DNA of 32,000 bases from Natronospirillum operosum (GCF_004768465.1 NZ_SRMF01000002.1:520401-552400), one strand, 5' to 3'. Shown: positions 1-19,439, counted from the first letter of the stretch. The notes: generated by a model from the sequence alone, not told the origin. Translations and numbers: made by a program.

Positions 1-1047
1 CTCTGCGCCCTTCACTGCGGCCGCCATGGCGGCATCAAACTCGGCATCGGGCTGTCGGCGACCGGCCACACGACTGGCCAGTGCCACCAGCACCTCGGCA
101 CAGTCGCCGCACAGGAAATCGTCCACCACATAGTTGCGCTGTGCCGCTGCCGGGTCCGCATCTATCTGCACCAGCGGGCGCGGCAAAACCACCGAGTAGG
201 TGCGGGTTTCATTGCTGCGCAGCTTGGAGCCGGCCACCACCATCAGATCACAGGTGCCAAAGAGCTGCTCCACGGATTCACTACTGTGGAAGGCACGCAG
301 GCTGCGCGGGTGACTGTCGGGCAGTACCCCCCGCCCGTGCGTACTGGACACCACGGCAATGCCGGCATCGGCCAGCGCCCTGACGGACGCCCCCGCATGG
401 CGGGCGCCGCCGCCGATCCAGAGCACTGGCCGCCGGGCGCTGAGCAGCCGTTCTGCCAATTGATCCAGTTGCTCCGCCGATGGCTGGGGCAACTGCAGCG
501 GTGCAACCGTGGGCAGGGGTGTATAGTTCAGCGTCGCGGCCTGTATATCGATGGGAATTTCTATACTGACCGGCCCCGAAGGCGCGGTACGCGCCTCCTG
601 AATGGCCCGGTGCAGCACGGGAATCATCTGCTCTGGCGTGGTCACCCGGTAGGCGGCCTTGCAGCAGGCGCGCAGTACATTCAACTGGTCCTTGGTTTCA
701 TGAATGAAGCCGGCCTCGCGATCCAGATAACCGGTTTCCACCTGGCCGGTCAGGTGCAGCATGGGCGTTCCGGCGTTGTAGGCTTCCATCAACGCGCCAA
801 TGGCGTTACCGGCACCGGCACCAGTGCTGGTCAGGGCGACGGCCAGGCTGCCGACCCGGGTGTGGGCATCGGCCATGGTCACGGCACCGGCCTCGCCGCG
901 TGCCGGCACGAAGCGAATCCGCTGGCGCTGCCCGATGGCATCGGCGATGGGCAGGTTGTGAATGGAGATCACGCCATAGACAGCGTCCACACCATAGTCT
1001 TCCAGGGTCTGACTGATGGCCGTACCAACAGAGACTGCATTGTTCAT
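1..1047 (-). CDS. Thiamine-diphosphate-dependent enzyme (acetolactate-synthase/decarboxylase-like). N-terminal 349 codons only; the C-terminus lies beyond the window edge.
   Basis: Not in the ORF track because no stop lies in the window. I translated the reverse complement by hand from the ATG at 1047-1045, and the frame is open to position 1. It begins MNNAVSVGTAISQTLEDYGVDAVYGVISIHNLPIADAIG and continues RGEAGAVTMADAHTRVGSLAVALTSTGAGAGNAIGALMEAYNAGTPMLHLTGQV, which is the typical ThDP pyrimidine-binding domain. The later WIGGGARHAG stretch fits the central domain. An SD GGAGGAA lies 4-5 nt upstream of the ATG. Confidence 0.85.
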   Translation of the reverse strand, partial: MNNAVSVGTAISQTLEDYGVDAVYGVISIHNLPIADAIGQRQRIRFVPARGEAGAVTMADAHTRVGSLAVALTSTGAGAGNAIGALMEAYNAGTPMLHLTGQVETGYLDREAGFIHETKDQLNVLRACCKAAYRVTTPEQMIPVLHRAIQEARTAPSGPVSIEIPIDIQAATLNYTPLPTVAPLQLPQPSAEQLDQLAERLLSARRPVLWIGGGARHAGASVRALADAGIAVVSSTHGRGVLPDSHPRSLRAFHSSESVEQLFGTCDLMVVAGSKLRSNETRTYSVVLPRPLVQIDADPAAAQRNYVVDDFLCGDCAEVLVALASRVAGRRQPDAEFDAAMAAAVKGAE

Positions 1048-1077
1048 AAATTCCTCCAGGGCAATGGATCGCTGGCC

Positions 1078-2547
1078 TCAGTCACTCCAGCCAATGGGTT
1101 CGGGACTCATCCCCAGGTAAAGGCTCTTCTGCTGCATGTATGCCAGCACTCCCTGGCGGCCTTTTTCGCGACCGATGCCGCTGTCCTTGTAACCGCCGAA
1201 CGGCGTGGAGATGGAGAATTTCTTGTAGGTATTGATCCAGACCGTGCCGACAGCCAGTCGGCGCGCCAGACTGAACGCGCGCTGATAGTCGGCCGTCCAG
1301 ATGCCGGCGGCCAGGCCATAGACATTGTCGTTGGCCAGGCGGACCAGTTCGTCTTCGTCACGGTAGGAGAACACCACCAGCACCGGGCCGAAGATCTCCT
1401 CCTGACAGGCGACGCTGTCATGAGGCAGGCTGTCGATGATGGTCGGCAGGTAATAGTTGCCGCTGGCCAGCGCCGGGTCGTCGGGAATGGCACCGCCGCA
1501 CAGGATGCGGCCGCCATCGGCTCGTGCCTGGTCCACATAGGCGGCCACACTGTCCCGATGTTCGGGCGTGATCAGCGGGCTGATATGCGTGCCCTCGGTT
1601 TCCGGGTGACCGACACGAAGGTTGCGCGTCACCGCCAGCAGCCGAGCCATGAATTCGTCATAACGGCTTGCGTGGATGAACAGCCGCGAGCCAGCAATAC
1701 AGGCCTGGCCGGAGGAACTGAATATGCCGAATACGACACCCTTGACGGCCTGTTCCAGATTCGCGTCCGGGCACACAATGGTGGGCGACTTGCCGCCCAG
1801 TTCCAGCGAGGTCGAGATCAGCTTGTCGGCCGCCACATGGGCCAGGTGCCGGCCGGTCCGGGTGCCGCCGGTAAAGGAGATCCGGCGCACCCTTGGGTGC
1901 CGGCAGATGGCCTCCCCGATCACGCTGCCCTTGCCCGGCAGTACGCTCAGCAGACCCTTCGGCAGACCGGCTTCCTCGAACAGCTCGCCCATTTTCAGGG
2001 CCAGCAGCGGTGTGGCCTCTGCCGGTTTCATGATGACGGCATTGCCGGCAGCCAGCGCCGGGGCCACCTTCTGCATTTCACTGGCAATGGGGGAATTCCA
2101 CGGCGTGATGGCCGCAATGACGCCCAGCGGCTCATACTGACTGAAGGTCATGGTGTCGGGCAGACGCGGCGTGGTGATCTCGCTGTCCAGCGTCTCGCTG
2201 ACCGCCGCAAAGTAGCGCGCGGTGCCGGCCGCGCTGGCGACCAGAGCCCGGGTTTCGGCCAGTGGCTTGCCGTTGTCGCGGGTCTGCAGCGCCGCCAGTT
2301 CCTCCTGCCGGGCCATGATCAGATCGCTGACCCGGTACAGCACGGCGGCCCTTTCATGGGGCAGCCGGTCGCGCCAGCCGGGTGCCTGCCAGGCGGCGTC
2401 GGCAGCGGCGATGGCGGCTTCCACATCCTCCAGGCCCGCTGCCCTGAGTTCGGCATTGACCGAGCCGTCGGCCGGGAATACGGACTGCATGGGGTTGCCG
2501 CTGCCCAGCTTCCATTCGCCGCCCACCAGTATGGGTTGCTGTTTCAT
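1078..2547 (-). CDS. NAD(P)+-dependent aldehyde dehydrogenase
   Basis: 489 aa with the ALDH hallmarks ELGGKSP (catalytic Glu region) and GQACIAGSR (catalytic Cys), plus PWNSP and FTGGTRTG. An SD AGGAGAG lies upstream. Confidence 0.95.
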   Translation of the reverse strand: MKQQPILVGGEWKLGSGNPMQSVFPADGSVNAELRAAGLEDVEAAIAAADAAWQAPGWRDRLPHERAAVLYRVSDLIMARQEELAALQTRDNGKPLAETRALVASAAGTARYFAAVSETLDSEITTPRLPDTMTFSQYEPLGVIAAITPWNSPIASEMQKVAPALAAGNAVIMKPAEATPLLALKMGELFEEAGLPKGLLSVLPGKGSVIGEAICRHPRVRRISFTGGTRTGRHLAHVAADKLISTSLELGGKSPTIVCPDANLEQAVKGVVFGIFSSSGQACIAGSRLFIHASRYDEFMARLLAVTRNLRVGHPETEGTHISPLITPEHRDSVAAYVDQARADGGRILCGGAIPDDPALASGNYYLPTIIDSLPHDSVACQEEIFGPVLVVFSYRDEDELVRLANDNVYGLAAGIWTADYQRAFSLARRLAVGTVWINTYKKFSISTPFGGYKDSGIGREKGRQGVLAYMQQKSLYLGMSPEPIGWSD

Positions 2548-2574
2548 ACGATACTCTCCTGCGGCGTCCGCAGC

Positions 2575-3405
2575 TCAGATCACGATCGGTGCCAGCGCCT
2601 GTCGACAGGCTCTGACCACGGACAGTGCCGCCAGCGTGGATGTTTTCGGGTTGTTTTCCAGCGGGCGGCCGTTCAATTCGATATGGAATTCGCCAAAGCG
2701 CCCGCGGGCATGAATGCGATGGGTGTTGGTGGCGGTGTGCGGGTCCACTGTCAGCTTGACGGTGGTGGCCTCAAGCCCCACCCCGGCCAGGCCGACCGTC
2801 GCCGCCACATTGGCATTGGCCGGAAACAGACGCGCAGCTTCGGCCGCGGTGCCTTCGAAGAACACGGTTGCGGAGCTGACTGTATCCAGATTGATCAGAT
2901 TCTCGGCATGGCTGCCTTTCCAACTGCGCGGGGCCTTGCGTGACTCGTAGGTAACCTCGTCCAGCCCGCCTTCGCGGGCTGCCGCCAGGCCATCGATGCC
3001 GGCAATGGCGCCCGACAGCAATATCAGTCGGCCACCGCCCTTGCGGGCCGCTTCTTCAAGACGCTTGTGCAGGGCTTCGTCAGCCAGCGCACCGACCGAG
3101 ACCACGGCCAGATCCAGACCCCGTTCGAGGACGGCGACGCCGTGCTCGCGCACCCCGGCCTGACCGGCGCACTCCAGTACCAGATCCGGACGGCCGGCAC
3201 ACTGGTCGACCCGGCTTACGGTGTTGATGTCGCGCAAGTGCTGACGTTCACTCAGATCACTGTGAGCCGGCAATACCACCCAGTCCAGAGACAGGCCGGC
3301 CGGCAGCAGACGGTGAACTTCGCGCCCCATGGCGCCATAGCCGATCATCATGATGCTGCGGCTGGCGGCGCCGGACTGGGGGTTCTGATTGCGTTGAGCT
3401 GTCAT
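2575..3405 (-). CDS. Aspartate-dehydrogenase-like (NadX family) NAD(P)-dependent dehydrogenase
   Basis: 276 aa. It has an N-terminal Rossmann IGYGAMG motif. The C-terminal half reads LSGAIAGIDGL...ESRKAPRSW...FEGTAAEAARLFPANANVAATVGLAG...DPHTATNTHRIHARGRFGEFHIELNGRPLENNPKTSTLAALS, which is characteristic of the aspartate dehydrogenase family. The start may instead be the internal MM at codons 19-20. Confidence 0.85.
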   Translation of the reverse strand: MTAQRNQNPQSGAASRSIMMIGYGAMGREVHRLLPAGLSLDWVVLPAHSDLSERQHLRDINTVSRVDQCAGRPDLVLECAGQAGVREHGVAVLERGLDLAVVSVGALADEALHKRLEEAARKGGGRLILLSGAIAGIDGLAAAREGGLDEVTYESRKAPRSWKGSHAENLINLDTVSSATVFFEGTAAEAARLFPANANVAATVGLAGVGLEATTVKLTVDPHTATNTHRIHARGRFGEFHIELNGRPLENNPKTSTLAALSVVRACRQALAPIVI

Positions 3406-3407
3406 GA

Positions 3408-4205
3408 TTACAGATGCCTGTTGAAACCGCCCGATACGTCAAGCGCCGCACCGGTTGTGAATGAAGCCATGGGCGAAGCCAGAAAGACCAGAGCCCGCGC
3501 GGGCTCTTCCGGTCGGCCCAGGCGGCCCATGGGTATACCGCGTTTGCGGGCAATGCCGCCGATCCAGTCTTCCCAGGTCTGCTCGGGGTCGGCACGCTGC
3601 TCGTAGCGGCGCCGCCACTGACCGGACTCCACCATGCCCAGCAGGATGGAGTTGACGCGAATGCCATCCGTGATCAGTTCATGCGCCAGGTTGTGGGTCA
3701 TGTTGAGCAGGGCGGCACGTGCCGCCGAGGTGGCGATCATGTGGGGCTCGGGCTGCAGGGCCAGCAATGAATTGACGCAGGTCAGAGAACCGATATCCGA
3801 CGCGGCCAGCTGCGCGCGAAAGGCCTGCAGCGGGTTGAGCACGCCATGCAGTTTCAGCTGTGTCTCGGACAGCCAGGCGTCAGCCGGTGTCTCGTCCAGC
3901 GTTGCCACATAGCCCTGGCCGGCATTGGCGATCAGCATGTCCACTGCACCCATGGTCTGCACCACATCCGTCGCAAAGCGGTGACAGGAAGCCGGGTCCA
4001 GCACATCACAGGGAGCGCTCATCAGTTGCGCCTGCGGGAAGTCCGCGCGCAGTGACCGGGCCGCCTGTTCCAGGCGCTCGGCGTTGCGTCCACAGAAGGC
4101 CACCCGTGCACCGGCGGCCAGCAACAGGCGGACGGTCTCCAGACCGATCCCCGAAGAGCCTCCGGTGACCACCGCCACCCGCTCGCGGATCAGAAAATCC
4201 ATCAT
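3408..4205 (-). CDS. Short-chain dehydrogenase/reductase family protein with a non-canonical active site
   Basis: 265 aa with TGGSSGIG cofactor motif, ANAG and VNS. TSAAR occupies the YxxxK position. An SD GGGAGGA lies upstream, and the stop is 2 nt from the next start. Confidence 0.9.
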   Translation of the reverse strand: MMDFLIRERVAVVTGGSSGIGLETVRLLLAAGARVAFCGRNAERLEQAARSLRADFPQAQLMSAPCDVLDPASCHRFATDVVQTMGAVDMLIANAGQGYVATLDETPADAWLSETQLKLHGVLNPLQAFRAQLAASDIGSLTCVNSLLALQPEPHMIATSAARAALLNMTHNLAHELITDGIRVNSILLGMVESGQWRRRYEQRADPEQTWEDWIGGIARKRGIPMGRLGRPEEPARALVFLASPMASFTTGAALDVSGGFNRHL

Positions 4206-4210
4206 TTCAT

Positions 4211-5047
4211 TTATCCTCCCAGCGCCATGGTTTCGGTGCGCGCCACCTGGCCGCTCAGTTCACGCACGGCGGCGGCAAATCCGCTCGGGTTGTCGATGTA
4301 GCTGGCATGGCCCGCCGCCTCGATACTCCGATAGGGCAGCCCCAGTCGCGCGGCCAGGGCCTGGGCGCCCGCCGGCGGCGTAATGGCATCTTCGGCGCCG
4401 CACAGGACCACGCCCGGCAACCCGGCGGGCAGCGGCAGGTAGTCCGCCAGCGCATCATGCGCCAGCATCCAGTTGGCGCGCCGAAAGCCTTCCACATTCA
4501 GCTTGCCCATTTCGGCCCGGACCCGCTCTAAATTGGCTGCCTCGGTCCCCGCTCGCAGCAGTCGCGGTGCCCGCCCCTCGGCGTAGGCCACCGTGCCCTG
4601 GCGCTCCAGTTCCGGCCAGCGGCTCTGGTAGACCCGTACCTGCTCCTCGGTGCCGGCATGACGGTACCCCTCGGCCGGGTCGGCCAGGATCAGACCCTGT
4701 ACCCGCTGCGGATAACGCGCCACATAGGCCGTCGCCATCATGGCGCCCAGCGAATGCCCCAGCAGAATGCAGTGCTCAATGTTCATCGCTGCGAGCCAGC
4801 ATTCCAGCCGCTCGGCGTAGTCGGCAGCGGTCGGTTCACTCGCTGCCAGTATGCGGCTGATGCCGTAGCCCGGTGCATCCCAGGCCAGCAGTCGATGGTC
4901 ACCCAGATGGCGCACCAATGGCTGCCAGGACCCGCTGCCGGAACTGATGCCATGCAGCATGACCACAGTCGGCGCTGCGGCCTGTTGCGCCGGCCATTCA
5001 CAGTAGGCCTGGGTACCGGAGGCAAGAGACAGGGCAATCATTTTCAT
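4211..5047 (-). CDS. Alpha/beta-fold hydrolase (meta-cleavage-product/ester hydrolase-like)
   Basis: 278 aa. HG oxyanion motif (VMLHGISSGSGSW), nucleophile elbow GHSLGAM, and a C-terminal GH (EAAGHASY). Confidence 0.9.
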   Translation of the reverse strand: MKMIALSLASGTQAYCEWPAQQAAAPTVVMLHGISSGSGSWQPLVRHLGDHRLLAWDAPGYGISRILAASEPTAADYAERLECWLAAMNIEHCILLGHSLGAMMATAYVARYPQRVQGLILADPAEGYRHAGTEEQVRVYQSRWPELERQGTVAYAEGRAPRLLRAGTEAANLERVRAEMGKLNVEGFRRANWMLAHDALADYLPLPAGLPGVVLCGAEDAITPPAGAQALAARLGLPYRSIEAAGHASYIDNPSGFAAAVRELSGQVARTETMALGG

Positions 5048-5073
5048 GGCATCACCACCTGGCCGACTGGCCT

Positions 5074-5595
5074 CTAGTTGCGCTTGATCTTCGACAGCGG
5101 ATGATCATCCGGATAGGTCGGAATCTGCGGTTTGGGTGTGCCCAGCATGACGCACATCAGACTCTCTTCCTCGGTACCGTTGAACAGCCCGCGATAGATA
5201 CCAGGCGGAATGGAGATCACATCACGCTCCTGCAGCACGGTTTCCATGTAGTGGTCGCCATCCTGCAGAAACAGCGTGATTTCACCCTTGAGCACAAAGA
5301 ACACCTCTTCCACATCGTCATGCACGTGCAGGGGGCCTTCACACTTGGCCGGCAGCACCATGGTGGAGAAGGTGAAATGTTCTGCCGGAATGGTGTTGGC
5401 ATCGTCCTTCACGCCGGTGGCGCCGGTGCCGATGTAGCGCATCTGGGCGCGCCGGTACTTGGGGTCGTAATCAGCCTGGAACTTGAGGGCATCCCAGTCG
5501 TACTTGCGGCCCTTGAAGCGGGCAATGCGGGATTCCATCCAGTCCTCGAAGCTCTTCTCTGCAGGTTTCTTCCAGGTGTCCAGTTGTGCGGTCAT
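5074..5595 (-). CDS. Cupin-domain protein
   Basis: 173 aa. Cupin motif 1 is GPLHVHDDVEEVFFVLKG. Motif 2 is PPGIYRGLFN, with Arg where the third His is usually found. An SD GAGAGGTGA lies upstream. Confidence 0.8.
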   Translation of the reverse strand: MTAQLDTWKKPAEKSFEDWMESRIARFKGRKYDWDALKFQADYDPKYRRAQMRYIGTGATGVKDDANTIPAEHFTFSTMVLPAKCEGPLHVHDDVEEVFFVLKGEITLFLQDGDHYMETVLQERDVISIPPGIYRGLFNGTEEESLMCVMLGTPKPQIPTYPDDHPLSKIKRN

Positions 5596-5657
5596 GATCG
5601 TTCACCTCTCTTTGGTGTGCAGTGATTCAATGGAGTCCGGTCGGGACTGTCTTGTGC

Positions 5658-6581
5658 TCAGTCCTTCTTCTGGCGCCGGGTCTTGTCATCGATACCGCCT
5701 TCTATGGCCCACTCGGTGAAGGACGTGAGCGAGTGCTCCATCTCCCGGGCCTGCCAGTTTTCCGTCAGGTAGTCTTCATTGGTGTAGTATTCAAAGGCGC
5801 CGCCGAGCGGGCTGTTGACGTACCAGAAATAGGCCGACGACACCGGGTGTCGCCCCGGGCCGATAAAGGTTGTCCACTCCTTGCCAGTCATGTGAATGCC
5901 ACCGCCGATGACCTCGTGGATATCGCGCACGGTAAAGGCCACATGATTCAGGCCGCGCGGCTTGTTCGGGATCTTCAGCAGAAACAGGTTGTGGTGTCCG
6001 CCCCGGGCCTGCATGCGCATGAACACGCCCCGATCGGTATAGCGGTCGGAGGCATGGAAGCCCATGACATCACGGTAGAACGCCTCGGTTTCTGCCAGAT
6101 CCTCGACAAAGAACACGGCATGGCCGATACCGACCGGCTCGGCCCGCTCATAGACCGGGCTGGGCTCGTCCACACGGCGCATATCACCATGTTGATTGAT
6201 CGGAGGCACGCGCAGCTCCACGGGCTGCAGTGCGGTGCGCATCACGCGGACCGTCATGCCATTGGGGTCACGGCACTGCACGACCTCGGCCGAGGCTTCG
6301 AAACCCGGCTGCTCGGCCATGCGCTGACGCAGGGTCTCAAGCGCGGTTGCATCCGCCACGCCCCAGGTCATCCGGCGCAGGGTAGACCCTTCTTCAAAGG
6401 GTGTCGGGAGAGTCGGGTCCTGCAGCGGGCGCGCTTCAATCCGGGCGCCATTCTGGGCCCGAAAGACGGCGTGCTCTGCTGTTTCGACCTCAGGCCTCAG
6501 GCCAAAGTCGCGCAGAAAACGCTGGCAGACCTTCATGTCGGCCACGCCGAACTCGAATGCTTCTATACCTACAATGCTCAT
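5658..6581 (-). CDS. Two-domain VOC-superfamily protein (extradiol ring-cleavage dioxygenase-like)
   Basis: The ORF runs to 6605, but the ATG at 6581 (MSIVGIEAFEFGVAD) is preceded by GGGAGAG at good spacing. Two glyoxalase/dioxygenase-like halves are visible (IGHAVFFVEDLAETEAFY... and LNHVAFTV). Confidence 0.85.
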   Translation of the reverse strand: MSIVGIEAFEFGVADMKVCQRFLRDFGLRPEVETAEHAVFRAQNGARIEARPLQDPTLPTPFEEGSTLRRMTWGVADATALETLRQRMAEQPGFEASAEVVQCRDPNGMTVRVMRTALQPVELRVPPINQHGDMRRVDEPSPVYERAEPVGIGHAVFFVEDLAETEAFYRDVMGFHASDRYTDRGVFMRMQARGGHHNLFLLKIPNKPRGLNHVAFTVRDIHEVIGGGIHMTGKEWTTFIGPGRHPVSSAYFWYVNSPLGGAFEYYTNEDYLTENWQAREMEHSLTSFTEWAIEGGIDDKTRRQKKD

Positions 6582-6625
6582 TTCACTGCTCTCCCGAACC
6601 TGCAATACGGTTGCACGTTCTGTTG

Positions 6626-7432
6626 TCAGGTCGCCTGTCGCGCTGCGCGGCCGCCGCGATAGCCCAGCATGCCGGAGATGCTGGCTGCCGCTTCCTCGAC
6701 ATGCGCTCTCAGTGGTTCACGATCTTCTGCCGGAATCTCATGCACCGGCACCAGAATACTGACCACGCCCTCGATATCGCCCTGGCCGTTGAATACCGGG
6801 TACACCACGGAGGAAATACCGAACTGGAAGAAGGATTCACCGATCACGTAGCCTCGACGACCATCTTCCTGCACCAGTTCCCACAGGGCTTCCCGATTGG
6901 CCGGTGCGCCGGGCTTGGTATCCGGCAGCTCGCCATCGGGATACACCGCTTCGAATTCGGACCGACTCAGCCCGGACAGCAGCATGCGGCCCAGCGACGT
7001 GCGGTGCGCCGGCAGACGGGTACCCACACTCACCTGGTTGATGGTGGCATTGGCCGCACTGACCCGGGCCACGTAGATCACGTCCTGCCCATCACGGATG
7101 GCGATATGGCTGGAGCACTGGGTCTTGTCGCGCAGCGACTCGATCACCGGCTGCCCGGCCTGGACCAGGTCCAGCGACGCGACATATTCGAAGCCGAGGC
7201 GCAGTACATTCACACCCAGTGAATACAGCCCTGTGGTCGGATGCCGGCGAACGAACCCCATGTACTCCAGGGTCTGCACCGCCCGATAGGCGGTGGCCTT
7301 GGGAAAATCCATCCGTTCGGCGAGTTCGGCAAAACTCATTTCACGATGACTGCGGGCCAGTTCCATCAGGATGATCAGCCCCCGCTCAAGACCGGGAATC
7401 AGGTATCTGCGGGCATCTTTTTCTTGGCTCAT
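6626..7432 (-). CDS. IclR-family transcriptional regulator
   Basis: 268 aa. N-terminal winged HTH (LERGLIILMELARSHREMSFAELAERMDFPKATAYRAVQTLEYMGFV) followed by an IclR effector domain. It is the first gene of the minus-strand operon. Confidence 0.9.
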   Translation of the reverse strand: MSQEKDARRYLIPGLERGLIILMELARSHREMSFAELAERMDFPKATAYRAVQTLEYMGFVRRHPTTGLYSLGVNVLRLGFEYVASLDLVQAGQPVIESLRDKTQCSSHIAIRDGQDVIYVARVSAANATINQVSVGTRLPAHRTSLGRMLLSGLSRSEFEAVYPDGELPDTKPGAPANREALWELVQEDGRRGYVIGESFFQFGISSVVYPVFNGQGDIEGVVSILVPVHEIPAEDREPLRAHVEEAAASISGMLGYRGGRAARQAT

Positions 7433-7539
7433 ACTCTTTTCACTCTTGTCAGGTCATGCTGGGCTATTGTGCCATCGTGTTTCCGTACTGCCTGAATCGA
7501 ACAAATTTAATATTTGAAACATCAGTTATTATATAAACT

Positions 7540-7568
7540 ATACTACGCCTGTACTGCTCAGCTGTCAA
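7540..7568 (-). promoter_or_regulatory. Sigma70-type promoter P1 for the iclR-led operon
   Basis: On the minus strand: TTGACA (7568-7563), a 17-nt spacer, then TAGTAT (7545-7540). An AT-rich block containing TGATGTTTCAAATATT follows. A GTTCGAT element (plus strand 7496-7502) lies further downstream. Confidence 0.6.
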
Positions 7569-7580
7569 TCCGGACCCCGC

Positions 7581-8897
7581 TCAGCGGAACATCATTTCGA
7601 CCGGCCAGGTCACGATCTGCGGGAACGTGAAGACCAGAATCAACGCCATGAAGTCACAGATCAGGAAGGGTATGGCGGCTCTGTAGATGTCCATCATGGT
7701 GGTGCCCTTGGGCGCCACACCCTTCATCACGAACAATGCAGCCCCTACTGGTGGTGAGGTGGCACCGGTCTCGATCGCAATCAGGAACAGCACTGCAAAC
7801 CAGATGGGATCAAAGCCAAGCTGGGTGACCACTGGTATATAGATGGGCAGTGTAATCAGCATGATTGGCAGCGGCCCCATGAACATGCCCAGCAGCACCA
7901 CAGACAGGATCATCATAAGGACGATCATCCGCGGGCTGATGTCCAGACTCATCACCGCATTCATCAGACCGAAGGTCACGCCGGTAAAGGCCAGCAACTG
8001 GCTGAAACCGATGGCGGTGCCTACTATCAGCAGAATCATTACCGAGAGATTGGAGCTCTCGAACATGGAGGCACCGAACTTGCGGACAGTCAGCCGCCGC
8101 TTGAACAGCGCCAGCAGTACCGTGGCCACGGCCCCGGAGGCCGCTGCCTCGGTCGGCGTGGCCCAGCCCAGAAAGATCACCCCGACCACGGAGAAGACGA
8201 CAACCCCGATGGGCACTATGTTGGCCGCACCGGACTTCAGCTTCTCGGGCCAGGGGGTGTAGGGTATGTCGAAAGTCGGCGCCACCGAAGGCTGCACCGT
8301 ACAGCGAATCCATATATAGGCCGCATAGAGCACCGCCATGATCAGGCCGGGCAGAATGATGGCAATCAGGATGCGACTGATGGACAGTTCACCCACGACC
8401 CCCAGCAGCACGGCCAGGGCACTGGGCGGTATCATGATGGCCAGCCCGGAGGAGCCGATAATGGGCCCCAGTGACATGGGCTTCTTGTAGCCTCTTTTTT
8501 CCATCTCCGGGGTCAGACTTGAACCCAGCAGGGCAATCGAACCCATGCTGTTGCCGGTCAGGGTGGAAAACAGCACCCCGCCGCCCACAGCCATGAAGGC
8601 CAGTCGACCCCGCAGCTTGCCGAACCATTTGTCCAGCGTATCCATCAGGTCATTGGCAATGCCCGATCGGAACATGACCTCGCCCATGATCATGAACATG
8701 GCTATGGGTACCAGCGTGAAACTGGTCAGGGCTCCGGTGGAGTTGACTACCAGCTGGCGCACCCCGGGAATACCACCCATGAATATGTAGGCCCCGACCA
8801 CATTGACGGCCAGAAAACTGAAGGCCACCGGCACACCGATGATCATCAGGAACATCAGGGCGCCCAGGATCAGCGACAGCGTCATCCACCATTCCAT
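7581..8897 (-). CDS. dctM: TRAP transporter large permease subunit
   Basis: Polytopic membrane protein. The ORF-track start at 8939 is a GTG. The ATG at 8897 (MEWWMTLSLILG) has GGAGG 9 nt upstream and gives the usual DctM N-terminus. Confidence 0.9.
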   Translation of the reverse strand: MEWWMTLSLILGALMFLMIIGVPVAFSFLAVNVVGAYIFMGGIPGVRQLVVNSTGALTSFTLVPIAMFMIMGEVMFRSGIANDLMDTLDKWFGKLRGRLAFMAVGGGVLFSTLTGNSMGSIALLGSSLTPEMEKRGYKKPMSLGPIIGSSGLAIMIPPSALAVLLGVVGELSISRILIAIILPGLIMAVLYAAYIWIRCTVQPSVAPTFDIPYTPWPEKLKSGAANIVPIGVVVFSVVGVIFLGWATPTEAAASGAVATVLLALFKRRLTVRKFGASMFESSNLSVMILLIVGTAIGFSQLLAFTGVTFGLMNAVMSLDISPRMIVLMMILSVVLLGMFMGPLPIMLITLPIYIPVVTQLGFDPIWFAVLFLIAIETGATSPPVGAALFVMKGVAPKGTTMMDIYRAAIPFLICDFMALILVFTFPQIVTWPVEMMFR

Positions 8898-8935
8898 ATC
8901 AGCGTACCTCCGGGGCAGGACAGTTGACCTTGCGT

Positions 8936-9466
8936 TCACTCGGCATCGGAGGTCCCCCTCAGGCTGTGCACTGCATGCGCCACAAACTGGATCGTCAGCA
9001 ACAGCATGCTCAGCGGCACCACGGCGGTGAAGATATAGCGCTGCGGGCGCAGCACGGACGTCACCCGGATGCCATGCTGATACTGGTCGATAGTGACCTG
9101 CAATGCATACCAGGCGAAGTACAGGCAGATGACCGCACCAAACAGATTGGTCAGTGCGGTCAGTATCTTCTGTGGTGTGGCGGGCAAGGCACCGGCCAGC
9201 AGATCAATGGCCACATGCCGGTTCTTTTCCAGCAGGAAGGGCGCCCCCAGGAAGGTCATGTACAGCAGTGAGTACCCGCTGACCTCCACCGTCCACATCA
9301 GTGATCGGTTGAACAGCAGGCGGGAGATGATCTCGGAAAAGACCATCAGGGTGGCGGCAACCAGTATGGCTGCAGCCAGGGCGGCCAGGGCCAGATTCAC
9401 CGCACTGACCCCCCGCATGATGGCAGCCATCCAGTCGTTCAACCGCGACATCTTTATCGAGGACAT
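8936..9466 (-). CDS. dctQ: TRAP transporter small permease subunit
   Basis: 176 aa with four hydrophobic segments, placed between the DctP-like and DctM-like genes. Confidence 0.85.
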   Translation of the reverse strand: MSSIKMSRLNDWMAAIMRGVSAVNLALAALAAAILVAATLMVFSEIISRLLFNRSLMWTVEVSGYSLLYMTFLGAPFLLEKNRHVAIDLLAGALPATPQKILTALTNLFGAVICLYFAWYALQVTIDQYQHGIRVTSVLRPQRYIFTAVVPLSMLLLTIQFVAHAVHSLRGTSDAE

Positions 9467-9495: not shown

Positions 9496-10473
9496 TCAAT
9501 CCACCAGCATGTCCATCAGTTCGTTGGCCAGATCCTCGCCCAGATCCTCACGCATCAGATCCCAGGCGGTTTCCAGCGACTGGTTGAGATAGTCTTCCGC
9601 GTCATCGCCTTCCAGGCGCAACTCGACATAGCCGGCCTCTTCGATCTCCTGCTCACCCAGCGCCAGGTACTGATCCCAGCTCTCGGCTTCCAGTTGATAG
9701 GCCAGATCGTCGCGCAGATAGGTTTGGAGCCGCTCGCGCAGATCTTCCGACATCCGGTTCCAGGCATCCTGATTGACCAGCACATTGAAGCCGGCACGGT
9801 AGAACTGAGGCGATACATAATGGGACACGACGTCGCCATACTGCGGCGCCCAGCCCTGATTGCCCTGCACAAAGCCGTCGATCACACCACGCTCCATGGC
9901 GGTGAAAATTTCTCCGATCGGCATGATGGTGGTATTGGCACCCATGGCCTCCAGGAACGGCTGCGCAGTCGGGAAGACCCGAATCCGCTTGCCGCGGATG
10001 TCGTCCAGAGAAGTGATTTCGTCACCCAGCCAGATATTGAAGCCGATTTCCGAGGCCGGAATTTCACCCCAGAACTTCAGCCCGCGGTCAGCATGCAACT
10101 CGTCCAGCCGCTCGTAATACCCGGTGCCGCGAATCTCCTCATAGGTCTTCATGGACAGGTTGTTGGTGGTGGAAGCCGGCACAGTACCCGAATAGTAGCT
10201 CGGGCTGATCAGCGCCACATCGATGGCGCCATTGCGCACGGCGTCAGCGAGATCGAATGGATTGATCACTTCCGGGCCACCGATCCAGTTCAACTGCACC
10301 TCGCCCGCAAACTCGTCATTGATGCCGTCAATAAAGGCCTGAAAGCCGGTCGCCAGCGGAATGGCCTGCGGGATGAAAGACACCACACGCAGCTGTTGTT
10401 GGGCCTGGGCCGAAACGGCCAGGGTCGCAGTGGCCAGACCTGCGGCAAGAGCAGTCAGTATCCTGTTTTTCAT
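9496..10473 (-). CDS. dctP: TRAP transporter substrate-binding protein (DctP family)
   Basis: 325 aa with signal peptide MKNRILTALAAGLATATLAVSAQA. DctP-like length and position. An SD AGAGGTG lies upstream. Confidence 0.9.
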   Translation of the reverse strand: MKNRILTALAAGLATATLAVSAQAQQQLRVVSFIPQAIPLATGFQAFIDGINDEFAGEVQLNWIGGPEVINPFDLADAVRNGAIDVALISPSYYSGTVPASTTNNLSMKTYEEIRGTGYYERLDELHADRGLKFWGEIPASEIGFNIWLGDEITSLDDIRGKRIRVFPTAQPFLEAMGANTTIMPIGEIFTAMERGVIDGFVQGNQGWAPQYGDVVSHYVSPQFYRAGFNVLVNQDAWNRMSEDLRERLQTYLRDDLAYQLEAESWDQYLALGEQEIEEAGYVELRLEGDDAEDYLNQSLETAWDLMREDLGEDLANELMDMLVD

Positions 10474-10510: not shown

Positions 10511-11641
10511 TCAGTCCAGCGCGACATTCCAGGCATCATAGCCATACACCCAGTCCGCATTGCCAGCCTGTTTGAGCCAGTCATTGGCTCGGGAACCGCG
10601 TTGTACATTGGCGGTACGTTCCAGCCGTGCGCGCTCGAAACGCTGCAGTGCCGGTGCCAGATCCGTTGTCGAAACACTCTCCAGGCAGCGCGCCAGCACC
10701 ACGGCATCCTCAATGGCCATACAAGCCCCCTGCGCCATGAAGGGCACCATGGGGTGCGCCGCATCACCCAGCACCACGGCCGCGCCACGGTGCCACGCGG
10801 ACATGGGCTCACGAACATAGAGCGCCGATTTGGTCACCGACTCGACTGCGCCCAGCAGCGCCTGCACTTCAGGATGAAAGTCCTGGTAAACCGCACGCAA
10901 CTCTTCCACATCACCCGGCATGGTCCAGGACTCCTCGGTCCAGCCCTGTTGTGGTGTGGTGGCAAAGATGAACACCTCTTCACCGCGAGTCAGCGGAAAG
11001 ACCACGACCTGAATGTCCGGTGAGGGCCCCCACCACTTGGTGAAGGCATCGAGATTGGGTACATCAATGGCGCTGCGGGGCACCACGGCCCGGTAGGACA
11101 CCAGACCGGTAAATTCGGGCTGATCGGCGCCAAACAGGCTGCGGCGAACGGCGGAATGGATGCCGTCACCACCGACCAGCAGGTCTGCCGTGGTGGTACG
11201 GTCACGTTCGAAACGGATCAGCGGTGGTGTGGACTGGCTGTCTACCGACTCCACACCGTGATCCAGATGGATAACATCAGAAGGCAGCTGCTGTTCCAGC
11301 GCCTGCAGCAGGTCGCCACGGTGGATGGTAAGCTGCGGTGCACCATAACGCTCTTCAGCGTCATTGCCCATGGCCAGCTTGGAAGTGACTTCGCCGGTAT
11401 CCCAGGTGCGACTGAGGCGATGCGTCGGCCGAGCGGCCGTCTCGCGAATGATGCCACCGACACCCAACCCGTCCAGGCACTTCACCGCATTGGGCGTAAG
11501 ATTGACATCCGCGCCGATGCGACGGAATGCCTTTGCCTGCTCATAAACCCTGACCTGATGCCCGACCTGTCCGCAGGCAATGGCCGCACAAAGGCCGCCA
11601 ATGCCGCCGCCACAGATAGCCAGTTCCAACCCTGTCTTCAT
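10511..11641 (-). CDS. FAD-dependent aromatic-ring monooxygenase (salicylate / 3-hydroxybenzoate hydroxylase-like)
   Basis: GGGIGGLCAAIA dinucleotide fold, GGDGIHSAVR, and GDAAHPMVPFMAQGACMAIEDA. I moved the start to the ATG at 11641 (MKTGLELAI) behind GAGAGGG. The 30-codon upstream extension runs through the AT-rich promoter. Confidence 0.9.
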   Translation of the reverse strand: MKTGLELAICGGGIGGLCAAIACGQVGHQVRVYEQAKAFRRIGADVNLTPNAVKCLDGLGVGGIIRETAARPTHRLSRTWDTGEVTSKLAMGNDAEERYGAPQLTIHRGDLLQALEQQLPSDVIHLDHGVESVDSQSTPPLIRFERDRTTTADLLVGGDGIHSAVRRSLFGADQPEFTGLVSYRAVVPRSAIDVPNLDAFTKWWGPSPDIQVVVFPLTRGEEVFIFATTPQQGWTEESWTMPGDVEELRAVYQDFHPEVQALLGAVESVTKSALYVREPMSAWHRGAAVVLGDAAHPMVPFMAQGACMAIEDAVVLARCLESVSTTDLAPALQRFERARLERTANVQRGSRANDWLKQAGNADWVYGYDAWNVALD

Positions 11642-11730
11642 AAGGCCCTCTCGCCGTCGATCACCGATTTCAACCGGCTTGTTTCCTGCTCCATGTTTTA
11701 TTATATGAAACAAGTTTTTATATATGATCA

Positions 11731-11759
11731 ACGATAGAACAGGACCCGCCGGATGTCAA
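11731..11759 (-). promoter_or_regulatory. Sigma70-type promoter P2 for the monooxygenase-dctPQM operon
   Basis: On the minus strand: CCGGATTGACA (the same 11-mer as at P1), a 17-nt spacer, then TATCGT. An AT-rich block with TTGTTTCATATAAT follows. Confidence 0.6.
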
Positions 11760-11890
11760 TCCGGCCCGAACCAGGGCAGAACTGCAGCCAGATGGCGAGA
11801 AAGGCAAGACAATCAATGAGTTATGAACAGAACCGGGAAATGCGCTCTGTTTCAGAGTGTCAGAAAGTGTAAATGCATGTACTGGTTACC

Positions 11891-11915
11891 CTGCCGGCAC
11901 TCGGAGTGCCGGCAG
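11891..11915 (-). terminator. Strong GC hairpin 13 nt downstream of the tauD-like stop
   Basis: CTGCCGGCAC-TCGGA-GTGCCGGCAG, a perfect 10-bp stem with a 5-nt loop. No U-tract follows on either strand, so intrinsic termination is uncertain. Confidence 0.45.
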
Positions 11916-11927
11916 AGATTGCAGGCA

Positions 11928-12746
11928 TCAGGCAGCCGCCGCCAGGGGCCGAGTCGTACCCTCTATCTGCACCCGGTAACCAGACCGCACGTGCGGCCAG
12001 TAGTCCCATACCGCCTTGTGGTGGGTACAGCGGTTGTCCCACAGGGCCACCGAATGCGGCGTCCAGTTGAAGCGGCAGCTCCACTCCGGCTTGGCGCAGT
12101 GTTCATAGAGAAACTCCAGAACACGCCTGGACTCATGCCGGGGCACTTCATTGATGTGCGACGTGAAGTCCGTATTGACGAACAGCAGCTTGCGCCCGGT
12201 TTCGGGGTGCTTGACGACTACCGGGTGCGCGGACACCGGTGTGCCCTGCCCGAATACACGCGTGCCGTCATGGGTCGCAGTCAGTCCGTCCAGATACTGT
12301 TTCATGGGCTCCGACAGCGCTTCATAGGCGGCGTACATGCTCGCAAACATCGTGCTGCCGCCGTTGTGCGGCGGTACCGTGTGGTTGTACAGCATGCTGC
12401 CCAGAGGCGGCACTTCGGCACAGGATTGGTCACTGTGAAAGTTCTCACCGGAGATCATGGTGCTGGTTTCGTCGTAGTGAAACTTGCGTACCAGCGGGTT
12501 GTCCGTGGTCTTGCTGATGGTCTTGGCCCCCACATGCTTGCCCAGCGGACCAAACTGACGCGCAAAGCGGATCTGATCGTCGAAACTGATCTGCTGGTCG
12601 CGGAAAAAGATGACACCACAGTCCAGAAATGCTTTCCTGATTTCCGCAAACACCTCGTCACTGATTTCAGAGGTGAGGTCCACGCCCTCGATCTCCGCGC
12701 CCACATGCGGGCTCAGACGAGTTACTTTTATATGTTGGTACGGCAT
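11928..12746 (-). CDS. TauD/TfdA-family Fe(II)/2-oxoglutarate-dependent dioxygenase
   Basis: 272 aa. HSD iron-binding motif (FHSDQS), GGSTMFASM, and WDNRCTHHKAV. An SD GAGGA lies upstream. Confidence 0.9.
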   Translation of the reverse strand: MPYQHIKVTRLSPHVGAEIEGVDLTSEISDEVFAEIRKAFLDCGVIFFRDQQISFDDQIRFARQFGPLGKHVGAKTISKTTDNPLVRKFHYDETSTMISGENFHSDQSCAEVPPLGSMLYNHTVPPHNGGSTMFASMYAAYEALSEPMKQYLDGLTATHDGTRVFGQGTPVSAHPVVVKHPETGRKLLFVNTDFTSHINEVPRHESRRVLEFLYEHCAKPEWSCRFNWTPHSVALWDNRCTHHKAVWDYWPHVRSGYRVQIEGTTRPLAAAA

Positions 12747-12845
12747 GCTGAATCCTCATTGCAACTAATACAGTATCAACTATACAGAGCCGGAAAAGCG
12801 CTGGTAAAATACGAAATATATATCTGCTGATACCGATTCGATAAC

Positions 12846-13772
12846 ATGGACATAAGACACCTGCGCCATTTCGTGGCGGTCGCGGAAGAGCTCCATTTCG
12901 GACGTGCAGCGCGCCGCCTGAACATGGAGCAGGCGCCGCTGAGCCAGTCCATCAAGCGTTTCGAAGAATATCTCGGAGGCGCACTTTTCGACCGTGCCGC
13001 ACGCAGTGGCACCCAACTGACCCCACTGGGGCAGCAACTGCTGCCGGATGCCCGACGGCTGGTCAGCGAGTTCGAGCTGACCATGCAGAATGCCCAGCTT
13101 GCAGCCACCGGAGAGCAGCGGCCGGTGAAGGTCGGGTTTGTCACTGCCGGCATTTTGCAACTGGTGCCTCAGGCCATTCGGCGCCTGCATCAGGTTGCAC
13201 CGGACATTCAGGTCAAACTGCGTGAAGCAGGCACTGCGGACCTGCTGGACATGCTGCGGGACGACGAACTGGATGTCTGCATCACCTTGCCCAGCGAGCA
13301 CTGCCCGCCCGGCATACAGATGATGGAAATCAGAAGAGACAGGACAATGCTGGCGATATGCAGACATCATGCACTCGCCGAACAGAAAATAATAACTGTC
13401 GATGATATTCGAAAAGAGCCACTTATATTTTTCCCGCGCGCAGTAAATCCCTATTTATATAAGCGCTTGCATGATTATTTTAATGCCCATGATTATACCC
13501 CGAGTATCGAACAGGAAGCGAAACTGACGCCAACCATGCTGGCCCTGGTCTCCGCCGGGCTGGGGGTCTGCTTCGTGCAGCAGAGCGCCGCCCTGTTGCC
13601 GTTCCCGGATGTGACGCTGCGCGAGATCGACGATCTCAGCGACGCGGTGCCCTGGAGCCTGATGCTGGCCTGGAAGCCCAGGCTCGCCAATGACGGGGTC
13701 ATGCGCTTTATCGACTGCCTGAAAGCTGCGGCACAGGACGCAGATAACGCAACGCCAGCAGCAGCACCATGA
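12846..13772 (+). CDS. LysR-family transcriptional regulator
   Basis: 308 aa. N-terminal MDIRHLRHFVAVAEELHFGRAARRLNMEQAPLSQSIKRFEEYLG is the canonical LysR HTH. It is divergent from the TauD-like gene. Confidence 0.9.
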   Translation: MDIRHLRHFVAVAEELHFGRAARRLNMEQAPLSQSIKRFEEYLGGALFDRAARSGTQLTPLGQQLLPDARRLVSEFELTMQNAQLAATGEQRPVKVGFVTAGILQLVPQAIRRLHQVAPDIQVKLREAGTADLLDMLRDDELDVCITLPSEHCPPGIQMMEIRRDRTMLAICRHHALAEQKIITVDDIRKEPLIFFPRAVNPYLYKRLHDYFNAHDYTPSIEQEAKLTPTMLALVSAGLGVCFVQQSAALLPFPDVTLREIDDLSDAVPWSLMLAWKPRLANDGVMRFIDCLKAAAQDADNATPAAAP

Positions 13773-15713: not shown

Positions 15714-16658
15714 TCAGTCGAAGTAGTTCAGAGCTGCATCATGGTAGGGAATGTTGGGTACGCCACGCATGCGTTCACGGTCAATGCCGCGGAAGTTGGC
15801 GACCGCATTGCCCAGTTCCTCACTGCCTTCTTCCATGGCCTGCAGGACCGACTCGATCGCTGCGGGATCGAAATCGCGGTGCGCGACCAGAACCACAGCA
15901 TAGGTCAGCAAATTGGTATCTGCAGCAATACCGGCCGGCAGGCTCTCTCTGTCCATCGGCGCCGGATAACCCTGCGGCATGATTTGCTGCGTGGCTTCAA
16001 CGGCAGCGTCATCGTCATACAGCGACAGGAAACGAACGCCGCCCATGGAGGCTTCCAGCTCTTCCACACTGCCGGAGCCTGCAGACAGGAAGGCCACATC
16101 CACCCGGCCGGAAGACAGCAGTTCGCCGCCGCGCGGTGTATTCGGCACCGATACAGTGGTTATGTCCGAGTCGGACAGCCCCGCATTGGCGACTATGGCC
16201 TGACGCATCAGTTCGATAATCGGCGCTGAAGAGTAGCCTGCGGCCACTCGCTTGCCGGCGATATCAGACAATTCCTGAATGTCCGAATCATCATCCACCA
16301 GAAAGCCGACCTGGCTTTCAAACAGCCCCGCGACCACGCGCAGGTTCGGGTGCTCCGAGTTGAACGGCACCTCGCCGTCCAGTGCGCGCGATACCTCGAA
16401 CACATTGACCACGGCAAAGTCGAGTTCGCCCTGATTGACCAGAGCCATCAGCGGCCCCGAGCCGGCATAAGGCTGCACCCGGGCATTGATGCCCTGATTT
16501 TCGAGTGTTTCGGACAAGCCGACACCGGTGGAGTAGAACAGCGTACCCGGCTGGTTGGTTCCGATTGTGACTGTCTGGCTGGCAGCCGGGGCAGACGCGA
16601 GCAGCCCGGTTATCAGCAGGGACAGCGGGAGTAGCAGTCTCGATTTGATCGTCAGCAT
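15714..16658 (-). CDS. TAXI-family TRAP transporter solute-binding protein
   Basis: Signal peptide MLTIKSRLLLPLSLLITGLLASAPAASQ, then TIGTNQPGTLFYSTGVGLSE...GELDFAVVN. I chose the ATG at 16658 behind AGGTGA. The ORF-track start at 16667 is a GTG. Confidence 0.9.
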   Translation of the reverse strand: MLTIKSRLLLPLSLLITGLLASAPAASQTVTIGTNQPGTLFYSTGVGLSETLENQGINARVQPYAGSGPLMALVNQGELDFAVVNVFEVSRALDGEVPFNSEHPNLRVVAGLFESQVGFLVDDDSDIQELSDIAGKRVAAGYSSAPIIELMRQAIVANAGLSDSDITTVSVPNTPRGGELLSSGRVDVAFLSAGSGSVEELEASMGGVRFLSLYDDDAAVEATQQIMPQGYPAPMDRESLPAGIAADTNLLTYAVVLVAHRDFDPAAIESVLQAMEEGSEELGNAVANFRGIDRERMRGVPNIPYHDAALNYFD

Positions 16659-16690
16659 AAACATCACCTGTTATGTGTTTCAGTTCCGTT

Positions 16691-16865: not shown

Positions 16866-16914
16866 GCTGCAACCCATTTTATATATGAAACATCATTTTT
16901 TATCTGATAATATG

Positions 16915-16943
16915 ACGTTAGCGCGGGGGTTGATCGATGTCAA
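16915..16943 (-). promoter_or_regulatory. Sigma70-type promoter P3 for the TAXI-TRAP operon
   Basis: On the minus strand: TTGACA (16943-16938), a 17-nt spacer, then TAACGT. An AT-rich block with TGATGTTTCATATATA follows. It implies a leader of about 245 nt. Confidence 0.55.
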
Positions 16944-18787: not shown

Positions 18788-18813
18788 GTCTGCCTCCCGC
18801 TGTACCGGTGCGC

Positions 18814-19119: not shown

Positions 19120-19439
19120 GATGCGGTCACCTCGGCTGAGTCCAGTTGAATTTCTTCGTCCACGATGCGCAGCGGATACACCTTGATGTCCCGCTCCGCC
19201 GGGCCGCCCAGACACTTGCCGGTGCGGATATCGAAAGTGGCTTCGTGCAGCGGACACTCAATCTCGCCGTCTTCCACAAACCCCTGCGACAGCAGGGCAT
19301 AGGCGTGAGGACAGACATCTTCCAGTGCATAGTAGTCATCGTCGAGCAGGTAGATGCCGACTTCCTTGCCGTCTATCTTGGCCGAGAAGGGAAAGTCTTC
19401 CTGTACCTGATCCTTGCGACAGACTGTGGTCCAACTCAT
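19116..19439 (-). CDS. Rieske-type [2Fe-2S] ferredoxin (oxygenase electron-transfer component, NirD/CarAc-like size)
   Basis: 107 aa from the ATG at 19439 (MSWTTVC) behind AGGGGG. Contains CPHAYALL...CPLHEATF. Confidence 0.85.
   Translation of the reverse strand: MSWTTVCRKDQVQEDFPFSAKIDGKEVGIYLLDDDYYALEDVCPHAYALLSQGFVEDGEIECPLHEATFDIRTGKCLGGPAERDIKVYPLRIVDEEIQLDSAEVTAS

Follow-up and report, generated by a model that had tools for sequence, protein, structure and literature searches.

The 32,000-nt stretch of Natronospirillum operosum DNA analysed here (GCF_004768465.1 NZ_SRMF01000002.1:520401-552400; the window) carries, at positions 1-7432, a group of genes that a first-pass annotation described as a single IclR-led operon of eight genes behind one promoter. 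ORF mapping places eight open reading frames (ORFs) in this region, all on the minus strand (Table 1). In order, they encode an IclR-family regulator, a two-domain vicinal oxygen chelate (VOC) protein, a cupin, an alpha/beta hydrolase, an atypical short-chain dehydrogenase/reductase (SDR), an L-aspartate dehydrogenase (AspDH), an aldehyde dehydrogenase (ALDH), and a thiamine diphosphate (ThDP)-dependent enzyme, with spacings of 20, 62, 26, 5, 2, 27, and 30 nt from the first gene to the last. The start of the VOC gene is probably 6581 rather than 6605, as judged from the database gene call and the orthologs. The ThDP gene extends 590 nt past the start of the window, and the complete gene encodes 545 residues (L009, 11410-13047). 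Upstream of the operon, a promoter scan identifies a single strong sigma-70-like site, P1 (TTGACA-17-TAGTAT, 7568-7540). It lies in the only sizeable upstream gap, 148 nt of AT-rich DNA preceding the IclR gene. A terminator scan finds no intergenic terminator-like site inside the operon. At the ThDP end, a convergent gene for an AcrB-type RND efflux protein lies 21 nt away, indicating that the operon ends there. The arrangement first described, with its 2-62 nt gaps and its one promoter, is thus confirmed, and Pfam and NCBIfam agree with the gene families.

Table 1 Predicted features of the window discussed in the text, with the evidence used for each.
Feature	Position	Strand	Evidence
IclR-family regulator, first operon gene	6626-7432	minus	HTH_IclR and IclR_C domains
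Two-domain VOC protein, extradiol dioxygenase type	5658-6605	minus	PDB and TIGR02295 matches
Single-domain metal cupin	5074-5595	minus	Pfam Cupin_2
Alpha/beta hydrolase, Ser-Asp-His triad	4211-5047	minus	Pfam Abhydrolase_1
Atypical SDR, T-S-A-A-R replacing YxxxK	3408-4205	minus	NF005468, PDB 3LF1/3LF2
L-aspartate dehydrogenase (AspDH)	2575-3405	minus	NF009828
Aldehyde dehydrogenase (ALDH)	1078-2547	minus	Pfam Aldedh
ThDP-dependent enzyme, first 349 of 545 aa	1-1047, cut at window edge	minus	NF005470
P1, TTGACA-17-TAGTAT, then operator box TGTTTCAAATAT	7510-7568	minus	promoter scan
P2, TTGACA-17-TATCGT, then operator box TGTTTCATATAA	11701-11759	minus	promoter scan
P3, TTGACA-17-TAACGT, then operator box TGTTTCATATAT	16881-16943	minus	promoter scan
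P4, TTGACA-16-TATACT, then degenerate operator GTTGATATATGATAA	19463-19528	minus	direct sequence reading
DctPQM TRAP transporter	DctM 7581-8939, DctQ 8936-9466, DctP 9496-10473	minus	TIGR00786, NF037995 above cut-offs
NicC-like class-A FAD monooxygenase, 376 aa	10511-11641	minus	PDB 5EOW, E 1e-80
TAXI-type TRAP transporter	fused permease 13708-15645, binding protein 15714-16667	minus	TIGR02123, TIGR02122 above cut-offs
SDR1, proposed diol dehydrogenase	16995-17756	minus	part of upper module 16995-19439
Rieske oxygenase alpha subunit	17753-18787	minus	Pfam Rieske and VanA_C
Small HTH_62 protein	18814-19119	minus	Pfam HTH_62
Rieske ferredoxin	19116-19439	minus	Pfam Rieske

The VOC protein has the sequence features of a type I two-domain extradiol dioxygenase, including a putative His/His/Glu metal triad. 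Its best relatives in the PDB are homoprotocatechuate 2,3-dioxygenases (7.5e-14), and the TIGR02295 alignment spans residues 20-287. Residues H162, H204/H205, H221, and E272 are invariant in 84 sequences, their equivalence to residues of the solved enzyme being judged by motif position only. The cupin is the most conserved protein of the set (60-85% identity), with invariant residues H90, H92, and E96. Its structure model has a mean pLDDT of 70 (81-94 in the barrel), and the nearest solved structure is that of the Ni-quercetinase QueD (25% identity, rmsd 1.5). A search for specific likeness to the beta-diketone-cleaving cupin dioxygenase Dke1 was negative: no PDB sequence hit with E up to 1 is Dke1, and the 50 best Foldseek hits do not include it, the nearest being quercetinases and generic cupins. 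Therefore, we call the protein only a metal cupin, probably a dioxygenase.

The hydrolase conserves a GHSLGA motif, an Asp, and a His in about 80 orthologs. Its best matches are PcaD-like and RutD-like proteins, RutD being the best solved relative (4e-13). A role as a meta-cleavage-product (C-C) hydrolase of the BphD/HsaD/MhpC type was rejected because the curated models are not passed: the protein scores 34 bits with the BphD model (cut-off 462) and 45 bits with the HsaD model (cut-off 400), through N-terminal matches only. In addition, the VOC and hydrolase genes are not neighbours in Burkholderiaceae. Therefore, the proposed meta-cleavage core is only half right.

The atypical SDR scores 419 bits with NF005468 (PRK07062; cut-off 266). 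It retains the TGxxxGxG motif and the Ser, and the Tyr and Lys are replaced by Thr and Arg (TSAAR) in all 81 orthologs. It was accordingly rejected as a classical SDR, the Tyr-x-x-x-Lys pair being replaced by TxxxR. The protein matches PDB 3LF1/3LF2 (Q9HYA2 of Pseudomonas aeruginosa PAO1) at E 2.8e-88 and is about 60% identical to it from end to end, including the VNSLLA...ATSAARA region. The two proteins are orthologs with the same TxxxR centre, which has been noted for Q9HYA2 in the literature (PMC8659612). The other PDB hits, seven of them at E 1e-25 or better, include the peroxisomal trans-2-enoyl-CoA reductase 1YXM.

The remaining four proteins are assigned by domain and model scores. The regulator combines the N-terminal helix-turn-helix (PF09339, 8e-13) and the C-terminal effector domain (PF01614, 1e-26) expected of the IclR family, and scores 149 bits, under the cut-off, with the PcaR/PobR subfamily model. 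The ALDH matches Pfam Aldedh at E 1e-167 and retains the catalytic Cys and Glu in 80 orthologs; it scores well on the HpaE and hydroxymuconic-semialdehyde dehydrogenase models, yet under their cut-offs. AspDH carries NAD_binding_3 and Asp_DH_C domains, scores 391 bits with NF009828 (cut-off 177), and is encoded by a single-copy gene within the cluster in three other genomes checked. Aspartate dehydrogenase activity has been characterised for its orthologs from Klebsiella pneumoniae, Delftia, P. aeruginosa PAO1, and Ralstonia eutropha; these enzymes favour amination, and the substrates reported are aspartate and oxaloacetate (PMC5554190). By its sequence, the window protein is predicted to be a genuine member of this family, whose orthologs have measured activity. 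The ThDP enzyme, taken from the full gene, has all three TPP domains in its 545 residues, scores 806 bits with NF005470 (PRK07064; cut-off 495), and conserves the cofactor-activating Glu and the GDG..ND motif (GDG-X(26)-N) in about 80 orthologs. The closest named decarboxylase model is AruI, at 183 bits against a cut-off of 500. The enzyme is thus assigned to the PRK07064 group of the superfamily, within which decarboxylase and carboligase are not separable by sequence.

Comparison across bacteria shows that the unit is larger than the eight genes. With blastn of replicon records followed by a protein-guided scan, one genome per species, we find a relative of the VOC protein in at least 540 species. 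We examined 83 loci: three were annotated, and the other 80 were the best of the VOC scan. In about 80 species of at least seven families, 11-12 cluster genes lie together in varying order; the lineages are Halomonadaceae, Enterobacterales, Acinetobacter, Zobellella, Burkholderiaceae, Psychrobacter, and Neisseriaceae. Nearly every locus uncut by a contig end has genes for the Rieske ferredoxin, the HTH_62 protein, the Rieske alpha subunit, a second SDR, the VOC protein, the cupin, the hydrolase, the atypical SDR, AspDH, ALDH, and the ThDP enzyme, and the IclR gene usually accompanies them. The Rieske module and the lower genes share one block in about 75 of the 83 other loci. The only other genes that recur are those for a ferredoxin reductase (66 loci) and a major facilitator superfamily (MFS) transporter (54 loci), the latter taking in other taxa the importer role filled here by the DctPQM TRAP system. 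Gene order differs among Enterobacterales/Acinetobacter, Burkholderiaceae, and Halomonas-like lineages, but the set is kept, which favours functional coupling over inherited adjacency. The eight genes therefore appear to be the regulator and the shared lower half of a larger unit, of roughly 13 genes and conserved in hundreds of species, to which the Rieske oxygenase module and the transporters also belong.

The genes also come and go together. We sampled 151 genomes of the Enterobacteriaceae family evenly; the ThDP and Rieske alpha genes occur in the identical 15 of them, and AspDH in these and one more. In the 15 genomes, all three genes are on one contig, at most about 12 kb apart. The co-conservation that the first-pass annotation had left to a synteny check is thus strong, both in the 83 loci and in these genomes. 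The distribution of the cluster is patchy: none of the 30 nearest relatives sampled has a ThDP gene of the orthologous group, the window's genome is the only one of 300 from its class to have the cluster (absent from the other 299), and neither of two same-genus genomes matches the window's first 20 kb at the DNA level. As a separate observation, in-frame stop codons interrupt several enterobacterial copies, namely the ThDP genes of G350, G464, and G367 (TAA or TGA) and the G344 gene for AspDH (TGA). In one genome, G337, AspDH is present but the ThDP and Rieske genes are both missing. The stop codons and the lone AspDH suggest that the cluster may be decaying in some enterobacterial lineages.

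The closest relatives of the window's cluster are those of Halomonas and Bisbaumannia (66-85% protein identity). Compared with them, the window carries an insertion between SDR1 and the monooxygenase, made up of a TAXI-TRAP system, a LysR gene, and an unassigned ORF. In Bisbaumannia pacifica (L013), a gene for a 566-residue sulfatase (7053-8753), absent in the window, lies between dctM and the IclR gene, and the ferredoxin reductase gene comes after SDR1. Gaps of roughly 2 kb like that of L013 are present in other Halomonas-type loci (L014-L018, L022, L043, L045, and L086). A sulfatase beside a hydroxylase and an importer could reflect a sulfated aromatic substrate.

The four transcription units of the window share a control element. 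Promoters P1-P4 have a common design, namely TTGACA, a spacer of 16-17 nt, a TAnnnT hexamer, and then an AT-rich box. The box TGTTTCAWATAW occurs four times in the 4.34-Mb genome, versus about 0.3 expected by our own estimate, and three of the four copies lie directly downstream of the -10 elements of P1, P2, and P3. The fourth copy, TGTTTCATATAT at contig C1:394488, is in a very AT-rich spacer separating the genes for an OmpR-type response regulator and an ABC binding protein, and is probably there by chance. The P4 copy agrees with the core TTTCATATATGAAA at 11 of 14 positions, counted by eye. In Enterobacterales, the box sequence takes the form of a perfect 18-bp palindrome, AGTTTCATATATGAAACA, located about 36 nt upstream of the first cluster gene, and variants of it are present in Zobellella, Acinetobacter, and Burkholderiaceae. 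The shared box is what would be expected of an operator for the cluster's IclR regulator, and we predict it to be one. Because the promoters share both the design and the box, the Rieske module, the TAXI-TRAP importer, the monooxygenase-DctPQM unit, and the IclR-to-ThDP operon are joined in one predicted regulon. The IclR protein would probably repress the four promoters through the operator until the substrate or an intermediate appears.

Among the genes upstream of the operon, the Rieske alpha subunit has as its best PDB relatives the carbazole dioxygenase CarAa, phthalate dioxygenase, and the 2-oxoquinoline 8-monooxygenase OxoO. The closest solved relative of DctP is PDB 4MNC/4MNI (E 1e-30), a TRAP binding protein from structural genomics whose ligand is reportedly an aromatic 2-oxo acid. 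The monooxygenase matches PDB 5EOW, the 6-hydroxynicotinate 3-monooxygenase NicC. Its longest ORF (10511-11731) is over-called, the first 30 codons being AT-rich leader and operator; since P2 falls within that ORF, we set the true start at ATG 11641, which has a GAGAGG ribosome-binding site upstream, and not at TTG 11731. The monooxygenase is 58% identical to one inside the Pseudomonas cluster and 55% identical to one beside the Acinetobacter cluster, and is therefore a recurrent yet optional member, present in three lineages. In Acinetobacter ihumii and A. guerrae (L075 and L077, about 1000-6200), the gene for the latter enzyme is divergent, as is a second, distant Rieske alpha gene (35% identity), also beside the cluster. 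Divergent from P2 in the window, and upstream of the LysR gene (12846-13772), lies a 335-residue ORF on the plus strand (11823-12830) with no Pfam or NCBIfam match, overlapped by a 272-residue ORF on the other strand.

A resemblance to a Pseudomonas locus, pointed out in the first-pass annotation, holds. One Pseudomonas genome has, in a single block, genes for an ATP-binding cassette (ABC) importer, SDR1, cupin, hydrolase, IclR, SDR2, ThDP enzyme, AspDH, ALDH, VOC protein, FAD monooxygenase, an unknown ORF, HTH_62, Rieske oxygenase, RidA, and reductase, and the SDR ortholog Q9HYA2 comes from PAO1. The PAO1 block presumably lies around PA3504-PA3510. In Pseudomonas hygromyciniae (L099), a gene for a RidA/Ribonuc_L-PSP imine deaminase (18513-18920) is located between the Rieske alpha and reductase genes, consistent with an enamine or imine intermediate. 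A full-text literature search returned no paper assigning genes or a pathway to the cluster, and PA3504-PA3507 were found only in expression or fitness (omics) lists. The 120 VOC orthologs and the SDR orthologs all carry nothing but generic names in the databases. The absence of an assigned pathway, as first stated, is therefore borne out for the database names and the searchable full-text literature.

We consider it probable that the cluster encodes a conserved, uncharacterised pathway for a nitrogen-containing aromatic acid that ends in (imino)aspartate. The assayed orthologs are true aspartate dehydrogenases and favour amination, which points to iminoaspartate or oxaloacetate as the end product; an (imino)aspartate end product in turn calls for a ring with an N-C(COOH)-C-C unit, as in kynurenate (4-hydroxyquinoline-2-carboxylate). 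Our preferred reading, in which we infer the substrate and every step and which we regard as evenly poised between right and wrong, is that the cluster degrades kynurenate, the eight genes being the regulator and the lower half. The Rieske oxygenase and SDR1 (16995-19439) would convert kynurenate through the 7,8-dihydrodiol to 7,8-dihydroxykynurenate, and the VOC dioxygenase would open the benzene ring to give 5-(3-carboxy-3-oxopropenyl)-4,6-dihydroxypicolinate. The atypical SDR, acting as a C=C (enone) reductase, would then reduce the side-chain double bond to give the oxopropyl compound, the ThDP enzyme, acting as a 2-oxo-acid decarboxylase, would form the aldehyde, and ALDH would oxidise it to 5-(2-carboxyethyl)-4,6-dihydroxypicolinate. 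The last three steps are our own proposal, beyond the published ones: the cupin would oxidatively cleave the pyridone ring beside the substituted carbon, the Ser-hydrolase would split the resulting amide (an N-acyl enamine) into 2-oxoglutarate and aminofumarate/iminoaspartate, and AspDH would reduce iminoaspartate to L-aspartate.

Each published kynurenate reaction has a candidate of a suitable enzyme family in the cluster, which is compatibility and not proof. The Rieske oxygenase, the diol dehydrogenase, and the extradiol dioxygenase correspond to EC 1.14.99.2, 1.3.1.18, and 1.13.11.10 (Taniuchi and Hayaishi, 1963). A metabolite listing exists for 5-(3-carboxy-3-oxopropyl)-4,6-dihydroxypicolinate, the intermediate that the reduction would yield. 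Work of the Hayaishi laboratory in 1959-63 is said to have found a later oxidative decarboxylation to 5-(2-carboxyethyl)-4,6-dihydroxypicolinate, and glutamate, alanine, and acetate as end products; the proposed route matches these products. The SDR suits a C=C reduction because its Tyr/Lys pair is replaced and enoyl reductases are among its relatives. The succession of a ThDP decarboxylase and an ALDH is known from AruI and KauB, and the absence of the usual hydratase/aldolase lower pathway, remarked on in the first-pass annotation, is real, the reductase, the ThDP enzyme, and ALDH being predicted to shorten the side chain instead. If the route is correct, AspDH would travel only with this cluster because it reduces the pathway's iminoaspartate, and the RidA imine deaminase of the Pseudomonas version would be accounted for as well. 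The recruitment of a NicC-like hydroxypyridine-carboxylate monooxygenase in three lineages is a further indication for kynurenate. Growth of A. baumannii on kynurenic acid has been reported (PMC10732645), and the cluster is present in species of the A. calcoaceticus-baumannii group.

Several points weigh against kynurenate. The assignment is built on enzyme-family logic and, for the later steps and end products, partly on what the papers of 1959-63 reportedly describe. Among the solved relatives of the Rieske alpha subunit, the quinoline enzyme OxoO ranks below the carbazole and phthalate dioxygenases, and the cupin resembles cupins in general, quercetinase most, with no specific likeness to Dke1. 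The window's cluster has no linked ferredoxin reductase, which is present in 66 of the 83 other loci; a homolog of 37% identity is encoded elsewhere in the genome. In none of the 83 loci is a tryptophan 2,3-dioxygenase or kynureninase gene found within 10 kb of the cluster, and the presence of both genes elsewhere in the window's genome does not discriminate. Finally, the role of the NicC-like monooxygenase is unexplained by the route. One idea is that it might hydroxylate xanthurenate at C7, providing a second entry to the pathway.

The same architecture may instead serve another substrate, such as xanthurenate, quinaldate, another hydroxyquinoline or indole carboxylate, or a plant or marine aromatic acid, with the logic of Rieske attack, extradiol cleavage, and side-chain shortening unchanged. 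We rate this as a live possibility, though below an even chance. The identity of the substrate is a matter of inference, the nearest solved relatives of the Rieske alpha subunit act on carbazole, phthalate, and dicamba, and the closest solved relative of DctP indicates only a binding protein of a generic aromatic/oxo-acid type. Moreover, the transporters vary by lineage (MFS, ABC, TRAP, and TAXI), and Halomonas relatives have the sulfatase within their clusters. However, a single-copy AspDH that is always in the cluster calls for a skeleton yielding (imino)aspartate, which is missing from most aromatic acids, and the trio of reductase, ThDP enzyme, and ALDH matches the unusual published intermediates of kynurenate.

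It is improbable that the genes form a monocyclic meta-cleavage core of VOC protein and hydrolase, followed by an Ehrlich-type sequence of deamination by AspDH, decarboxylation by the ThDP enzyme, and oxidation by ALDH. The adjacency of the AspDH, ALDH, and ThDP genes, the good if sub-threshold ALDH scores on the HpaE and hydroxymuconic-semialdehyde models, and the homoprotocatechuate dioxygenases nearest to the VOC protein would all suit such a pathway. The hydrolase, however, fails the meta-cleavage-product hydrolase models, and the substrates reported for the assayed AspDH orthologs are aspartate and oxaloacetate (PMC5554190). In Burkholderiaceae, where the VOC and hydrolase genes are apart, the SDR and ThDP genes overlap (SDR2-ThDP-AspDH-ALDH), which argues that reduction, rather than deamination, is paired with decarboxylation. 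Hardly credible is a NadX-like AspDH serving NAD biosynthesis merely beside an unrelated catabolic operon, the eight genes then not being one unit: RefSeq gives the orthologs a Gene Ontology term for NAD biosynthesis, but 15 of the 16 genomes with AspDH also have the ThDP and Rieske genes, AspDH is absent from the other 135 of the 151 genomes, its gene is 2-27 nt from each neighbour, and the 30 nearest relatives lack the ThDP gene as the two same-genus genomes lack the whole 20 kb.

Kynurenate degradation can be extended to a fuller and more speculative version, which we hold tentatively and think doubtful. It would comprise a complete route from kynurenate to 2-oxoglutarate and L-aspartate, in which AspDH, as a catabolic iminoaspartate reductase, conserves the ring nitrogen directly in aspartate, and two importer-equipped branches in one IclR regulon. 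The Rieske oxygenase and SDR1 would act on kynurenate and the NicC-like hydroxylase on an 8-hydroxylated analogue, such as xanthurenate, and both branches would converge on 7,8-dihydroxykynurenate. In hosts, kynurenic acid is a major product of tryptophan metabolism, with roles in immune and neural signalling. The chemistry of its bacterial degradation was solved about 60 years ago, and we know of no genes assigned to it. Should kynurenate be the substrate, three orphan EC numbers would gain sequences, physiological roles would be found for the mesophilic aspartate dehydrogenase and for the atypical SDR Q9HYA2, and the microbial removal of kynurenate in hosts would become open to knock-out genetics. 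The genera that bear the cluster include Klebsiella, Enterobacter, Serratia, Yersinia, Providencia, Acinetobacter, Pseudomonas, Burkholderia, and marine Halomonas.

Among known systems, the classical kynurenate (quinoline) pathway has dioxygenation, diol dehydrogenation, extradiol cleavage, and side-chain reduction that match the enzyme families of the cluster, as well as a two-step oxidative decarboxylation and the release of C5 and C3/C4 acids with the nitrogen. It differs in being known as biochemistry only, no assigned genes having been found in the literature or in database names. Upper pathways of the naphthalene/biphenyl type share the first three reaction types and the enzyme superfamilies (Rieske dioxygenase, cis-diol dehydrogenase, and type I extradiol dioxygenase), whereas the cluster has neither a hydratase-aldolase nor a meta-cleavage-product hydrolase. 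In the arginine transaminase pathway, AruI and KauB take a 2-oxo acid through an aldehyde to an acid with a ThDP enzyme and an ALDH, but the AruI score is far under its cut-off and both the substrate and the gene context differ. The nicotinate pathway offers NicC as a match for the window monooxygenase, and an alpha/beta hydrolase acting after ring cleavage would parallel the amide hydrolase NicD. However, the cluster has no NicX-type dioxygenase, maleamate amidase, or maleate isomerase, and the monooxygenase is optional across lineages. The PAO1-type block of Pseudomonas resembles the window in its orthologous SDR and in grouping the lower genes with the Rieske oxygenase. It differs in gene order and in having an ABC importer, a PDR-type reductase, and RidA, whereas the window, with no linked reductase, has two TRAP systems and a Rieske ferredoxin, distributed over four transcription units.

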